Of a stretch of DNA of 64,000 nucleotides, positions 3,237 to 19,798 are shown one piece after another. How positions within the stretch are numbered: position 1 is the stretch's first letter; each line of letters starts with the position of its first letter. The position numbers and the translations under genes are program-made. The DNA is from Syntrophobacterales bacterium (GTDB taxonomy: Bacteria > Desulfobacterota > Desulfobaccia > Desulfobaccales > 0-14-0-80-60-11): positions 7,235-71,234 of the forward strand of contig JAGVAH010000044.1 in assembly GCA_020060385.1 (NCBI GenBank). Reading direction: 5' to 3'. The notes under the pieces are model-generated. The model worked only from the letters and a program-made list of their open reading frames with translations, was not told the DNA's origin and ran no database searches.

Positions 3237-4574
3237 ATGCCTTACGAACCTGTAGATACCCGGATCCCCACCCTGGGGGTGCCCAAAGTGGATTCCCCCA
3301 TTCCCATCGAATCTATGCACACCCGGCATGGACAGGAGGTAAAAACCACTTTTGTGGAGGACCGGGAAGGGGTCCTGGTCTACGACACCTGGGACTATTT
3401 GGCGCAGTTGCAAAGTTTGGACGAGGCCCTTTGCTTCGAGATGGCCGGGCCCCGCGCCAAGATCTACTTCGACCCCTCCAAAGTCCACTGCGCCATCGTC
3501 ACCTGCGGGGGCCTATGCCCCGGCACCAATGATGTCATCCGGGCCATCGTCTTGGAACTGCATTACCTTTACGGGGTGCGCCACATCTTTGGAGTGCGGT
3601 ACGGCTTCCAGGGCTTCATTCCCCGGTACCACCATGACCTGATGAAGCTGACCCCCGAGATTGTGGCCAATATCCACACCTTCGGGGGGACGATCCTCTC
3701 TTCGTCCCGGGGGCCCCAGGACGTGGGGGAGATTGTGGACGCCCTGGAACGGCTCAACATCCATGTCCTCTTTCTCATCGGCGGCGATGGCACCCTGAGG
3801 GCGGCAGACCGCATCTGCGATGAGATCCACCAACGCCAATTGCAAATCAGCGTGGTTGCCATCCCGAAGACCATTGACAACGACATTCCCTTTGTTTACC
3901 GCTCCTTCGGGTTCGACACCGCGGTGGAAGTGGCCACCGACGCCATCCGGGCCGCACATACCGAGGCCTTGGGGGCGCCTAACGGCGTCGGCCTGGTGAA
4001 GCTCATGGGCCGTTATTCGGGATTTATCGCCGCCAATGCCACCCTGGCTCTGCGGGAGGTCAACTTTGTGCTGATTCCCGAGTCGGATTTTGACATTGAC
4101 GGCAAGCACGGCCTGTTGGCCAGATTGGAGAGCCGCCTCCAGGAGCGGGACCATGCGGTCATCGTGGTGGCGGAAGGCGCAGGACAGAAATATTTCAAGG
4201 AAGAGGACCTGCCCCGGGACCCCTCGGGCAATATCAAACCGGGAGACATTGGCCTCTATCTCCAGGAAAGAATCAAAGAGTATTTCCAGAGCAAAAGCAA
4301 AGAAATTAATCTCAAGTACATCGACCCCAGCTACCTGATCCGCAGCATGCCGGCCAACTACAATGACCGCATCTATTGCGGTTTTCTGGGGCAAAACGCG
4401 GTGCATGCGGGGATGACGGGCAGAACCGCGATGCTGGTGACCAGGTGGCACCGCCATTACGTCCATGTTCCCATCAAGGCGACCATGGGGCAACGTAAAG
4501 AGTTGCATTTGGACTCCCCCTTGTGGCGCAGCGTCCTGGAATCCACCGGCCAACCGCCTCTGATTAACCATTGA
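3237..4574 (+). CDS. pfkA: ATP-dependent 6-phosphofructokinase (long PfkA type)
   Basis: TCGGLCPG; GGTILSSSRG; GGDGT (Gly form typical of ATP use); PKTIDND; KLMGR; YIDPSY. Confidence 0.92.
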   Translation: MPYEPVDTRIPTLGVPKVDSPIPIESMHTRHGQEVKTTFVEDREGVLVYDTWDYLAQLQSLDEALCFEMAGPRAKIYFDPSKVHCAIVTCGGLCPGTNDVIRAIVLELHYLYGVRHIFGVRYGFQGFIPRYHHDLMKLTPEIVANIHTFGGTILSSSRGPQDVGEIVDALERLNIHVLFLIGGDGTLRAADRICDEIHQRQLQISVVAIPKTIDNDIPFVYRSFGFDTAVEVATDAIRAAHTEALGAPNGVGLVKLMGRYSGFIAANATLALREVNFVLIPESDFDIDGKHGLLARLESRLQERDHAVIVVAEGAGQKYFKEEDLPRDPSGNIKPGDIGLYLQERIKEYFQSKSKEINLKYIDPSYLIRSMPANYNDRIYCGFLGQNAVHAGMTGRTAMLVTRWHRHYVHVPIKATMGQRKELHLDSPLWRSVLESTGQPPLINH

Positions 4575-16794: not shown

Positions 16795-17787
16795 TTAATG
16801 CAGGGTCTCCTCCAGGGCCTCCAGGTGCTTGCGCATGCCGATGAGGATCAGGGTATCTCCCGCCAGCACCGGCGCCGCGGGCGAGGGATTAAAGAGCATC
16901 TCCCCGTCGGCCCGCTTGATGGCCACCACGATCAACCCGTATTGCTGGCGGATGCCGGAGTCCTTGAGGGGCAGGCCGATCATCGCGGAGGTGGTGCCCA
17001 CCGCGACCTCTTCCATGCTCCACTCCACCCCTTCGTGCATGGCCAGTTCCATGAGGGTGGTCACCGTGGGGCGTAAAATGGTGTGGGCCATCTTCCGGCC
17101 GCCCAGCTCATAGGGAGACTCCACCTTGTCTGCCCCGGCCCGGAGCAGTTTCTGCCGGGAGCCCACTTCTTCGCCCCGGGCGACGATGAACAGATTGGGG
17201 TTGAGGCTGCGGGCGGTGAGGACGATATAGACGTTGCTGGCGTCGGAATGCACCACGGACACCAGTCCCCGGGCCCGCTCGATACCGGCTTCCAACAGCA
17301 CCTCTTCCTTGGTGGCGTCCCCGGCCACGAAGTAATAACCGGATTTATCCAGGTAGTTGATGGTCTCCAGGTTATTTTCCACCACCACCAGGGGTATGCT
17401 TCGCTCTTGCAGTTGCCGGGCAATGATTTCTCCCAGACGTCCATACCCGCAAATAATATAGTGACCACTCAGTTTTTTGATGCGTTTCAGCAATTTTCTC
17501 TTCCCCAAGGCCGCGGCGATTTCCCCTTCCACCACCACCCGGGCCAAAGAGGTGATGATGTAAAACAATAACCCCATGCCCGCCAGGATCAGGACCATGT
17601 TATAGACCCTGCCCAGGGGGGACAGGGGGCGGGTCTCCCCGTAACCCACGGTGGTGAGGGTGGTCACCGTCATGTAGAGGGCGTCAAAGAAGGGCCAGCC
17701 TTCCAGCCAGACAAACCCCAGGCTGCCCAGCACCAGAATAACCAGCAGACTGCCGGTCAATGTCGCGATTTTGCGGAAAGTCAGCAT
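16795..17787 (-). CDS. Potassium channel protein with TrkA-N/TrkA-C (RCK) domains
   Basis: Selectivity filter TTVGYG; CGYGRLG; GDAT; TrkA-C tail. Confidence 0.92.
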   Translation of the reverse strand: MLTFRKIATLTGSLLVILVLGSLGFVWLEGWPFFDALYMTVTTLTTVGYGETRPLSPLGRVYNMVLILAGMGLLFYIITSLARVVVEGEIAAALGKRKLLKRIKKLSGHYIICGYGRLGEIIARQLQERSIPLVVVENNLETINYLDKSGYYFVAGDATKEEVLLEAGIERARGLVSVVHSDASNVYIVLTARSLNPNLFIVARGEEVGSRQKLLRAGADKVESPYELGGRKMAHTILRPTVTTLMELAMHEGVEWSMEEVAVGTTSAMIGLPLKDSGIRQQYGLIVVAIKRADGEMLFNPSPAAPVLAGDTLILIGMRKHLEALEETLH

Positions 17788-17808: not shown

Positions 17809-19725
17809 CTAGTCGCCGTGCAAGATAGCCTCGACCACATAAGCGTCGGTGATCAGCACATTGAAATAGCGGCCTTTGAGGCAGGCCCGGATGGCCTCGG
17901 TCTTTTCCAGACCCCCGGCCACCGCCACCACATAACGGTCGGCCTGGGCCGCGCGCTCCCTTAAATCCAGGGCCCCCACGCCGATGACCCGCCGGGTCAG
18001 GGCCGCCAGTTCCGGGTCCTGGGAGTCGGTCAGCGGTTCGCCATTGGCGTCGATGGGGGTGTGATTGATCTCCCCCACCACCCCTTTGGCCGCCAGGTCT
18101 TGGGCGGTCAGTCCCAGCTCCTGGGAAGCCAGGGCCCTGAAACCGGGCAAGGGGCCGGTGAGATAGCCGATACCCAGGACCATGATCTCCGCGTTCCAGA
18201 TGTCCTGATAAATCTTCAAAAGGTCCGGATTGGCCGTCAATCTCTTCTCATATTCCTCCTTGGAATCCACCGGCATGGAGGGGAGGATGAAGGCCGTGGC
18301 ATCCGGATACTTGGTGCTCATCATCCCAACCAGGGCGTTGGCGGTGAGGCCCGGCATGGTGAGAATGGGAGTCATGGTCAGGGGATAGAGCTTCAGACCG
18401 GTGAGGCGCTCCGGTTCCAGATAATTGATCAGGTGGTACAGGGTCTTCCCCCCGGAAAGACCGATGCTGGCGCCTTTAGGGGTAATTTCCTCCAGGTAGT
18501 ACGCAGCTTCCCGGGCCACGGTCTTCTGGATGGAGTCCAGGTCTTTAATGCCGGGGTCCACCACCCGCAACTCCCGGAGATGGGGGTAGCGCTCCTTGAG
18601 CTGGTCTTCCAGGTCGCTGCGCCGGGGAATGGCCGACTTTTCAAAGATAAAGGCCATAACCTGGGGCATGGTGGTATATTCCATTTCGTGCAGGCCCAGG
18701 CGGTGCGGCTCGAAGGGGCCGTGGCGCCGCATATAATTGGCCACCCGGTTGGCCTCCTTGCGGCACTCATCGAAGGACACGTCGGCAAACATGTCCATGG
18801 GCCCCAGGAGCTTGCCGTCGGTTAACTGGTAGCCGGCACAGATAACCCGGGGCGGCCCGTCGAAGCGGCTGGGGATGGCGTCTTTGAAGGCGCAGGGCAT
18901 CAGGGGGCCGTGATGGGAGCCCCGCATCCAGCCCTCCACCAGGTGGGGAAAGGCAAAGGGCTCCAGGGCCTCGCCCACTGCCGGGAAGCCCGACTGGCAA
19001 CGGACGATCATCACCGGGTCGTCCTTGCCCACGTAGCGGCCGGCGATGAGTCCCAGCCTCTGGGAGGAGGCCGCGGCCGCCACTTCGTTGTCCTTCTTGC
19101 GGTAGATGTTTTCGATGACGTACCGGCCGGTGGCCCCCACCAAGACCAGGAGGTCGTACATGTCCTCCGGGCAGGAGAGAATCCACTCCTTGTGTTCCAC
19201 GACGTCCAGGACCCGGAAGCGGAAACCCCGGTGCATGTTGGGGTCGATGACCAGGCCGATGGTGTTGAAGGGGTCGCCGAAGATGCGGAAGAGGGGCAGG
19301 TTCCAGGCCCCCGGCGAGGTCTTGTCGGCCATGAAAATGAGGATGGGCTCGCTTTTGCGTTCTGCGAAGACCATCTCCGCCACCCCGGGGCCCATGCCCT
19401 TGACGTTCCCGGAGAAGGCGTCGGCCAGCATATCCTGCCCGGCCCCGTAAAGCTTCAGTTTCTTGGCCAAGGCGGTGAGTTCCATGAAGGTGTCCCAGGC
19501 GAACTTGTGGACCTCGGTATCATTTTCGCCCCGCTCGTGGGTCATGATCAACTCCGCGTCATCACCCACGTTCAGCACCTGCCCGTCTATCAGGAAACCA
19601 CGGTCCACCGCCTTTTGGACGTGTTCCCGGGCCAGCGCCATCATCTCCGGATGGCAGGTGCTATGTCCCACCCAACCACCTACGTCCGCTTTAATTACCG
19701 ATAGGGTTATCTTTTCCGCGCCCAT
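17809..19725 (-). CDS. fbp: Fructose-1,6-bisphosphate aldolase/phosphatase (class V FBPase) fused to a C-terminal SorC/CggR-type sugar-binding domain
   Basis: N-terminal ~360 aa: KADVGG..GH, VGDD, LYGAGQD, ADKT.PG, YVGKDDP, GWMRGSH. C-terminal ~275 aa: LEDQLKERY, AAYYLEE, IGLSGGKT, VLGIG, GVVGEI, VAGGLEK..AI..CLKG...NVLITD. Confidence 0.9.
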   Translation of the reverse strand: MGAEKITLSVIKADVGGWVGHSTCHPEMMALAREHVQKAVDRGFLIDGQVLNVGDDAELIMTHERGENDTEVHKFAWDTFMELTALAKKLKLYGAGQDMLADAFSGNVKGMGPGVAEMVFAERKSEPILIFMADKTSPGAWNLPLFRIFGDPFNTIGLVIDPNMHRGFRFRVLDVVEHKEWILSCPEDMYDLLVLVGATGRYVIENIYRKKDNEVAAAASSQRLGLIAGRYVGKDDPVMIVRCQSGFPAVGEALEPFAFPHLVEGWMRGSHHGPLMPCAFKDAIPSRFDGPPRVICAGYQLTDGKLLGPMDMFADVSFDECRKEANRVANYMRRHGPFEPHRLGLHEMEYTTMPQVMAFIFEKSAIPRRSDLEDQLKERYPHLRELRVVDPGIKDLDSIQKTVAREAAYYLEEITPKGASIGLSGGKTLYHLINYLEPERLTGLKLYPLTMTPILTMPGLTANALVGMMSTKYPDATAFILPSMPVDSKEEYEKRLTANPDLLKIYQDIWNAEIMVLGIGYLTGPLPGFRALASQELGLTAQDLAAKGVVGEINHTPIDANGEPLTDSQDPELAALTRRVIGVGALDLRERAAQADRYVVAVAGGLEKTEAIRACLKGRYFNVLITDAYVVEAILHGD

Positions 19726-19798
19726 TAGAATCCTCCTTTCTCCCCCGGATTAGCATTTTCTTTGCCAGAGGTTGGATGATTATGGTAATGAGAGGACC

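Follow-up and report, generated by a model that had tools for sequence, protein, structure and literature searches.

In gluconeogenesis, FBP aldolase/phosphatase makes fructose-6-phosphate from triose phosphates, an irreversible commitment to hexose. This enzyme (class V FBPase) is usually viewed as ancestral and as lacking dedicated allosteric control, and we know of no description of a dedicated allosteric domain for it. The textbook case of allosteric control at the FBP-to-fructose-6-phosphate step is the class I FBPase, which is inhibited by AMP. The solved archaeal-type class V enzymes (S. tokodaii ST0318, 3r1m/1umg; T. neutrophilus, 3t2b-3t2g) and most of the bacterial homologues stop about 5-30 residues past a conserved EYTT motif. 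A stand-alone architecture is also the rule in the phylum studied here, as a sequence-only reading of this locus had stated for the enzyme in general: most of the FBPase_3 matches in 401 genomes span only residues ~2-365. PMC12965863 (citing Say and Fuchs 2010) places the enzyme among the widely discussed candidates for the ancestral gluconeogenic enzyme.

The SorC-family repressors with solved structures, i.e. DeoR (4oqp/8r7y) and CggR (3bxe-3bxh/8r3g) of B. subtilis, SorC (2w48) of K. pneumoniae and LsrR (4l4y) of E. coli, share one effector fold. According to PMC11229326, SorC effector domains bind phosphosugars, a bound ligand takes effect at the contacts that effector domains make with one another, and the CggR effector domain binds FBP and DHAP, which agrees with what the sequence-only reading had said of CggR. 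Outputs other than DNA binding (such as TIR, SIR2, caspase and HD-CE) were also found joined to the Sugar-bind domain that typifies this family. A literature search for a fusion of FBPase_3 and Sugar-bind found no paper.

The 64,000-nt window (the whole stretch of DNA analysed) carries such a fusion on its minus strand (the sequence-only reading had named no strand), at 17809..19725, as a frame of 638 codons plus stop (the stop at 17809-17811) that translates with zero internal stops. The uninterrupted frame had already been recognised from the letters, and all the motifs then named were located in its translation. A 610-aa call of the same gene (P0002) would lack the KADVGG motif; we favour the longer frame because a Shine-Dalgarno AGGAGG (19732..19737, minus strand) stands 6 nt upstream of its ATG at 19725. 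A simple scan found no sigma-70-like promoter for the gene, and no Shine-Dalgarno-like site was found ahead of Met358, from which the C-terminal domain might be translated separately. The Pfam scan returned the two domains that had been anticipated, FBPase_3 and Sugar-bind, with only 8 residues between them. We regard the gene, from its sequence, as encoding what is predicted to be a genuine two-domain enzyme whose parts were joined anciently.

The FBP aldolase/phosphatase domain occupies residues 5-360 (18646..19713, minus strand) and matches FBPase_3 with 595.7 bits against a cut-off of 25 (E 4.4e-179), while its score on NCBIfam NF041126 (FBP_aldo_phos; 583.8 bits) lies over the equivalog cut-off of 520. 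Residues 5-358 align with residues 3-356 of the S. tokodaii enzyme 3r1m without a gap (E 1.7e-148), and the modelled catalytic half superimposes on 3r1m and 1umg with TMt 0.91-0.93 at 59-61% identity (Foldseek). KADVGG (residues 12-17), VGDD (53-56) and ADKT (133-136) are identical or conservatively replaced relative to 3r1m; YGAGQD lies at 93-98, and YVGKDD (231-236) contains Lys234, which corresponds to Lys232 of 3r1m. We take this lysine to be the one that forms the Schiff base and the Asp motifs to bind metal or phosphate. The domain ends at EYTTMPQV (residues 349-356; 18658..18681, minus strand), presumably a mobile active-site loop, whose Tyr350 is the counterpart of Tyr348 in the S. tokodaii enzyme; the sequence-only reading had put this motif at about nt 18660, in agreement with these coordinates. 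The YVGKDD lysine, the Asp motifs and the EYTT tyrosine are thus common to the fusion and the solved class V enzymes, the difference being a sensor domain of 270 residues that the fusion adds. The AF2 model of the fused protein has a mean pLDDT of 89, dipping to 63-76 across residues 331-370. On these alignments, the first 360 residues are predicted to be a catalytically complete FBP aldolase/phosphatase.

The C-terminal half (residues 369-635; 17821..18621, minus strand) is a SorC-family effector-binding domain, matching Sugar-bind (PF04198 / IPR007324) with 120.2 bits against a cut-off of 27 (E 1.1e-34) over profile positions 6-256 of 257. No HTH family was found in the fused protein by the Pfam scan, and the C-terminal half aligns to positions 61-310 of 311 of the NCBIfam DeoR model, the DNA-binding part excluded, which bears out the earlier description of an effector domain that has lost its helix-turn-helix. 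Because the HTH is absent, the protein is not a SorC-family regulator, only the bearer of its sensor domain; it also stays far below the NCBIfam cut-offs for DeoR (71.9 vs 420) and LsrR (31.1 vs 486). Foldseek placed the fold with the solved repressors (TMt 0.77-0.84 overall; DeoR 0.84, a SorC homologue 0.84, CggR 0.77-0.82 at 21-22% identity), with identities of 17-25% to any solved member. Its PDB sequence matches include 2r5f, DeoR, LsrR and SorC, and CggR is absent among the 10 matches at E<=0.01. Hence, from the earlier label of a SorC/CggR-type domain the SorC part stands and the CggR part does not: the domain is generically SorC-type, with CggR no nearer than DeoR or SorC.

SorC effector domains are homologous to NagB-family enzymes, and their ligand site corresponds to the active site of the latter (excerpts of PMC11229326 and PMC2943609). 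Considering that the substrates and the product of the partner enzyme are phosphosugars, the appended domain might instead handle substrate or catalyse, its NagB-like fold holding fructose-6-phosphate or triose phosphates or isomerising the product. We hold this to be improbable, as the fold fits regulator effector domains far better than NagB/6PGL enzymes (TMt 0.44-0.53 at 12-17% identity for the latter), and the sequence relatives that were found are regulators or sensor fusions only, with zero enzymes. Membership of the NagB or 6-phosphogluconolactonase families was rejected on the same grounds of fold and sequence.

The hallmarks of the family are retained in the fused protein: GLSGGKT (residues 422-428), LVGMMSTKY (465-473), GIG (518-520), GVVGEI (548-553; GVVGEIN, 548-554), VAGGLEKTEAI (602-612) and NVLITD (622-627). 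Nine signature positions (G426, T428, G520, G562, G605, K608, L624, T626 and D627) are kept in 97-100% of the fusions. Across 113 SorC-family representatives with an HTH, conservation of these columns is 83-99%; they include the G-x-T loop and the GG..K motif, which, we assume, line the phosphate site. One further glycine, G551, is Gly in 95% of SorC-family representatives and Ala in 58% of the fusions. In B. subtilis DeoR a lysine binds deoxyribose-5-phosphate covalently; its counterpart in the fusion is Thr450, and covalent chemistry of the DeoR type is therefore absent.

The two halves meet in the linker FEKSAIPR (residues 361-368; 18622..18645, minus strand), which is nearly uniform (average conservation per column 0.993) in a set of 108 fused proteins, each 600-700 aa long and drawn from independent assemblies. 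An artefact (a frameshift, a misassembly, or two adjacent genes read through), which the sequence-only reading had named as an outcome that would undo its claim, can be set aside, its probability being close to nil: the fusion lies in a single frame in those 108 proteins, in 35 genomes within the order and in 3 that are more distant, the linker is near-invariant, and the junction is bridged by one DNA contig (covering 18507-18741) of an unrelated public run. In the public sequencing runs at most 15% of the sampled words were recovered from any one run, and the matching records are all short contigs that belong to relatives. In three metatranscriptome runs there are contigs that match one half or the other, both halves being represented but the junction bridged by none; they do not count as evidence that this gene is transcribed. 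Complex prediction between the N-terminal (1-360) and C-terminal (366-638) domains gave scores of 0.00, 0.41 and 0.00, which speak neither for nor against an association of the two.

Both Pfam domains are present in all the 120 homologues listed. Within the order, an intact fused frame was found in 35 of the 83 genomes; 33 had no match, two held remnants only, and four carry an unfused paralogue in addition. Outside it the fusion occurs in three genomes (59-60% identity), where the linker differs and is about 3 residues longer. G070, the sole genome of the order to be closed, has the stand-alone form only. All the sampled fused C-terminal domains (13/13) form one clade (SH-aLRT 99), and the fused N-terminal domains do so together with a single stand-alone gene (98/97); G089 has a stand-alone sister gene. 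The tree topologies fit one old fusion, and the sensor domain is dispensable in some lineages. Two long frames around FBPase_3 (in G405 and G255) were rejected as other fusions, being upstream read-through with zero extra domain. No carrier in culture emerged from this survey, as the UniRef entry A0A7C3Z346, labelled Desulfobacca acetoxidans, belongs to a 24-kb contig.

Purifying selection acts on both halves (dN/dS over 9 pairs of 0.03-0.11 for the N-terminal and 0.05-0.26 for the C-terminal half). A purely structural role, in which the domain dimerises or scaffolds enzyme oligomers without ligand-dependent control, would also account for this selection, and the short, near-invariant linker fits it too, as does the dimerisation of SorC effector domains, by which two DNA-bound dimers are linked (PMC11229326). 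Such a scaffold would, on the other hand, have no need of the signature columns that the fusions keep, and enzymes without the domain stand within the same clade (the gene of G089), so that we consider a structural module unlikely, though the least unlikely of the alternatives.

The reading that we prefer, and believe to be probable on the conserved architecture and site residues, is that the appended domain acts as a built-in phosphosugar sensor controlling the enzyme, both the ligand and its effect being our deduction. The effector domain of a SorC repressor, having lost its DNA-binding head, would have been appended 8 residues after the catalytic domain and would still bind a sugar phosphate, for which an intermediate close to the FBP node is the most plausible candidate: a triose phosphate or FBP could act as a feed-forward signal, and fructose-6-phosphate or glucose-6-phosphate would signal product. 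The ligand may alter contacts between effector domains, as it does in SorC repressors, and the change could pass via the short conserved linker to the C-terminal segment of the catalytic domain, and thereby to activity or assembly. Control that related regulators may exert on an FBPase_3-family gene would, in this way, be transferred onto the enzyme itself.

As an allosteric module the domain could help to prevent futile cycling, for which the sequence-only reading had pointed to an ATP-dependent 6-phosphofructokinase encoded at 3237..4574 (plus strand), the enzyme of the opposing reaction. Its identity holds (Pfam PFK; NCBIfam NF005301, 670.7 bits against a cut-off of 400). The genome (99.95% complete) has three PFK-family genes in all, two for ATP-PFKs and one for a PPi-PFK, plus two class II aldolases, and given the second ATP-PFK, the PPi-PFK and these aldolases, the PFK of the window is not the sole possible counterpart. 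The PPi-PFK and the class II aldolases could also provide a second gluconeogenic route, as predicted from their genes. Searches of the genome yielded no FBPase of class I, II or III, and the fusion is its sole FBPase_3. The AMP-inhibited class I enzyme is likened to the fusion by function alone (the enzyme of this step takes its signal from a metabolite, by which a futile cycle with PFK is avoided), since its fold is unrelated and its allosteric site lies inside the catalytic fold, whereas the fusion would rely on an appended transcription-factor domain. If the sensor reading is true, the FBP node would here be controlled without AMP or fructose-2,6-bisphosphate, and the fusion would offer a compact sensor-enzyme pair usable in engineering.

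Other regulator families have decoy domains of this kind, and the HTH-less domain might likewise pair with a SorC regulator or another partner, reporting flux to transcription as a trigger enzyme does. SorC-family effector domains do pair mutually (PMC11229326). The genome, nevertheless, holds zero Sugar-bind domains other than that of the fusion, and no DNA-binding protein stands among the flanking genes, which encode a K+ channel, an MBL-fold hydrolase and a secreted-looking 204-aa protein; we thus judge such partner switching to be very improbable.

The sensor reading gains a possible history from the nearest HTH-bearing relatives of the C-terminal domain, a group of regulators (P0123 and its kin, 37-42% identity, P0123 itself being the closest at 42%) from Rokubacteria/Methylomirabilota, Nitrospinota and Tectomicrobia bins. 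In 71 of their 80 loci an FBPase_3-like gene lies divergently upstream, and when only loci whose upstream flank reaches 2 kb or more are counted, the proportion is 60/66. This neighbour scores 256 bits on FBPase_3 and retains the GKDDP, GDD, GQD and ADKT motifs. The fused domain and the P0123-type regulators have 69 conserved identical columns in common, 15 of which (including the LVGMM..KY motif) are seldom found in 112 other SorC representatives and can be read as specific to the subfamily. The regulators differ from the fusion in being separate proteins with an N-terminal HTH, divergent from the enzyme gene, and their functional role is a predicted one. P0126, another close relative, has no FBPase_3 gene in its one recovered locus (a 6.8-kb contig).

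Our suggestion, to which we would give slightly less than an even chance, is that a transcription-factor sensor was recaptured by the kind of enzyme that its relatives adjoin, yielding a class V enzyme that responds directly to one of the phosphosugars in its pathway. Were this true, the fusion would serve as a Rosetta stone that reveals what a SorC subfamily acts on (an FBPase_3-family gene) and which class of effector it probably binds, the subfamily being one of Rokubacteria, Methylomirabilota and Nitrospinota, and it would present a clean natural case of regulation shifting from gene to protein. The FBPase_3-like neighbours are only 28-33% identical to the N-terminal domain of the fusion, so these particular gene pairs were not the source of the fusion; a divergent gene pair, moreover, cannot fuse via simple deletion. 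In the tree, the fused clade groups with the FBPase_3-linked regulators weakly (support 80).

The fused gene lies at positions 17809-19725 of the minus strand, where it forms the single uninterrupted ORF of 638 residues that the sequence-only reading had described, with all the quoted motifs in place; a Shine-Dalgarno sequence (AGGAGG) stands 6 nt ahead of its ATG. Pfam assigned residues 5-360 to FBPase_3 (E = 4.4e-179) and residues 369-635 to Sugar-bind (E = 1.1e-34, spanning positions 6-256 of a 257-position profile), and registered no DNA-binding family in the protein, which confirms the two-domain observation. In NCBIfam the N-half scored 583.8 bits (equivalog cut-off of 520 for FBP aldolase/phosphatase), while the C-half matched positions 61-310 (of 311) of the Bacillus DeoR model with 71.9 bits, far under the cut-off of 420.

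The distribution of the fusion was assessed by using residues 340-638 as a query against a collection of 5.8 billion proteins. Among the matches listed (120 of 131), every one carried both Pfam domains and 108 were 600-700 aa long; where the source was named, they came from Desulfobaccales, Desulfobacca acetoxidans or 'Deltaproteobacteria' bins. The architecture is already visible in public databases, annotated as FBP aldolase/phosphatase only (e.g., UniRef100_A0A7C3Z346), and no paper on it was found in the open-access literature and bioRxiv; the matches were irrelevant papers and a review of glycolysis in which CggR comes up separately. Within the order of the window genome, 50 of the 83 genomes had a match and 33 had none to the fused protein. 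The whole protein was encoded in one open frame in 35 of the 83 (69-96% identity); the other genomes with a match held pieces including some of the C-domain, cut by a contig end or split by a frameshift (7 genomes: G018, G021, G023, G051, G055, G068, G079), a truncated N-part alone (G052), short remnants alone (G022, G033) or a stand-alone FBPase_3 alone (61-63% identity; 5 genomes: G069, G070, G072, G073, G078). A stand-alone paralogue occurred beside the fused gene in four genomes (G026, G027, G056, G060). From an even sample of the phylum (401 genomes, 134 with an FBPase_3 match), the full fusion was recovered outside the order in three genomes (G222, G281, G310) as single ORFs of 635-644 aa with 59-60% identity, and the remaining out-of-order matches covered the N-half only. 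The recurrence of the same fusion across the order and beyond it settles the question of a junction artefact, an explanation to which we give practically no credence: the fusion is real. Since the last ~50 codons survive with stop codons in one genome (G033:C11:10170-10316), the first and last ~30 codons stand side by side in another (G022:C145:1681-1813), and two genera of the order are mostly without the gene (present in 4/18 and 3/15 genomes), the data point to repeated loss within the order.

Both halves appear as conserved parts of the 108 fused proteins, with median identities to the window protein of 83% (N-half) and 79% (C-half) and 99% conservation of the eight linker residues (361-368). 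In nine gene pairs, dN/dS (Nei-Gojobori) ranged over 0.03-0.11 in the N-half and 0.05-0.26 in the C-half. For comparison, 1.84 billion representatives were searched exhaustively (1076 matches at E <= 0.001), and 113 HTH-bearing members of the SorC family were taken from the result. The top-conserved columns of the SorC family (G426, T428, G520, G562, G605, K608, L624, T626, D627) were kept in 97-100% of the fusions; an exception was G551, where 95% of the family has Gly and 58% of the fusions have Ala. Next to this retention of family columns, a C-domain serving as a ligand-independent assembly module seems to us rather unlikely.

The N-half aligned without gaps (fused residues 5-358, E = 1.7e-148) to residues 3-356 of the Sulfolobus tokodaii enzyme (3r1m), with Lys234 of YVGKDD and Tyr350 of EYTT falling on Lys232 and Tyr348. 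An AlphaFold2 model (alignment of 119 rows) reached a mean pLDDT of 89.0 and a pTM of 0.68; confidence fell below 50 solely at residues 97-106 and 226-232 and was 63-76 over residues 331-370, low stretches which presumably correspond to mobile active-site loops of solved enzymes. By Foldseek against the PDB, the N-half matched 3r1m and 1umg (TMt 0.91-0.93), and the C-half was closest to the DeoR effector domain 4oqp and the SorC homologue 3efb (TMt 0.84 each), followed by CggR effector domains (0.77-0.82) and LsrR (0.72-0.77). NagB and 6-phosphogluconolactonase enzymes were found at a TMt of 0.44-0.53, and we consider it improbable that the C-domain has regained a catalytic or channelling role. 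Its top solved sequence relatives were 2r5f (E = 1.9e-13) and B. subtilis DeoR (E = 4e-10), and CggR was absent among the ten solved-structure matches at E <= 0.01. Hence, the 'CggR-type' label given to the C-half does not hold, and it is a SorC-family effector domain in general. Thr450 aligns with a DeoR lysine, which we take to be the covalent binder of deoxyribose-5-phosphate.

Two papers (PMC11229326; PMC2943609) describe the effector domain of SorC repressors as binding a phosphosugar, in many cases one that arises within the pathway under control, in a site that is the counterpart of the NagB active site, and ligand binding as disturbing the interface between effector domains. By analogy, the fused C-domain would bind a phosphosugar as well. 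The ligand-driven change would be relayed by the short, invariant linker to EYTT, the C-terminal segment of the catalytic domain (presumably a mobile active-site element), and so tune the activity or assembly of the enzyme. By analogy with those repressors that pathway intermediates release, our first guess for the ligand would be triose phosphate or FBP as activator, and our second F6P or G6P as inhibitor. The sensor role that we infer would be of interest for both central carbon metabolism and regulator evolution.

In the window genome (completeness 99.95%) the fused gene holds the only FBPase_3 and the only Sugar-bind domain; FBPases of class I (PF00316), II (GlpX) and III (FBPase_2) were looked for and not found, and a single inositol-monophosphatase-family protein was present. 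Further genes code for two class II FBP aldolases, two ATP-PFK-type proteins (one at 3237-4574 in the window) and one PPi-PFK. As the gene content thus covers the FBP node in both directions, it is plausible that the only dedicated FBPase is controlled post-translationally. The third PFK-family gene (G000:C134, L109:862-2673) scored 588.0 on the PPi-dependent model TIGR02477 (cut-off 587.95) and 597 on NF005482 (cut-off 446); a reversible enzyme of this kind would provide a partial detour around the fused FBPase at that step. The neighbours of the fused gene have nothing to do with sugar metabolism: a K+ channel gene (Ion_trans_2, TrkA_N and TrkA_C; 16795-17787, minus strand) begins 21 nt past its stop, and the others encode an MBL-fold hydrolase, RecJ and an upstream secreted-looking 204-aa protein. 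Co-transcription with the channel gene is possible, with no functional link evident; the channel gene also lay downstream in two of eight related loci examined (L004, L008). No DNA-binding domain was found among the flanking genes, and we regard a partner-switching role for the C-domain as very improbable.

The nearest full-length relative of the C-domain was a 341-aa regulator with HTH and Sugar-bind (P0123, 42% identity). Regulators of this kind were recovered at 80 loci, non-independent and drawn largely from one phylum (mostly Rokubacteria/Methylomirabilota bins, some Nitrospinota and Tectomicrobia), and in 71 of these (60 of the 66 whose upstream flank reached 2 kb or more) an FBPase_3-like gene lay just upstream on the opposite strand; P0126, also a close relative, yielded a single locus, in which no FBPase_3 gene was found. 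One example among loci L024-L102 is the divergent pair at L028:2349-3947 (minus) and L028:3971-4969 (plus), whose FBPase_3-family gene (256 bits) retains GDD, GQD, ADKT, GKDDP and the terminal EY, with only 28-33% identity to the fused N-half. In this conserved divergent arrangement the regulator is HTH-bearing and of SorC type, the FBPase_3-family gene carries insertions and keeps the catalytic motifs, and the two genes are probably an uncharacterised regulator-target pair. Fused C-domains and P0123-like regulators have 69 conserved identical columns in common, 15 of them rare in 112 other SorC representatives (e.g., the LVGMM..KY motif), and mean identity of the former was 39% to these regulators versus 29% to the other representatives. 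The 13 sampled fused C-domains formed one clade (SH-aLRT 99), grouped weakly (80) with the FBPase_3-linked regulators; the 18 sampled fused N-domains formed one clade with a stand-alone gene of genome G089 (98/97), itself sister to the out-of-order fusions (99/97). The most parsimonious scenario has a single fusion, after which the C-domain was lost at least once. Spacer deletion alone cannot fuse a divergent pair; this, the non-independence of the regulator loci and the P0126 locus all count against a simple origin story.

In other organisms, Sugar-bind domains of SorC type were also found fused, with no HTH, to TIR_2, SIR2_2, caspase (Peptidase_C14) and HD-CE (P0215, P0235, P0256, P0147). 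PADLOC matched their effector parts weakly to its models for ThsA-like SIR2, SAVED-TIR and caspase; from their domains, these proteins look like defence-type effectors with a phosphosugar sensor. Another genome of the order encodes an 892-aa protein (G049:C17, L107:716-3394) with four separate FBPase_3-matching stretches (243 bits), which appears to consist of repeated divergent FBPase_3-like units (23-38% identity to the window enzyme), and similar frames of ~900 aa were present in G155, G220, G275, G308, G332, G388 and G411.
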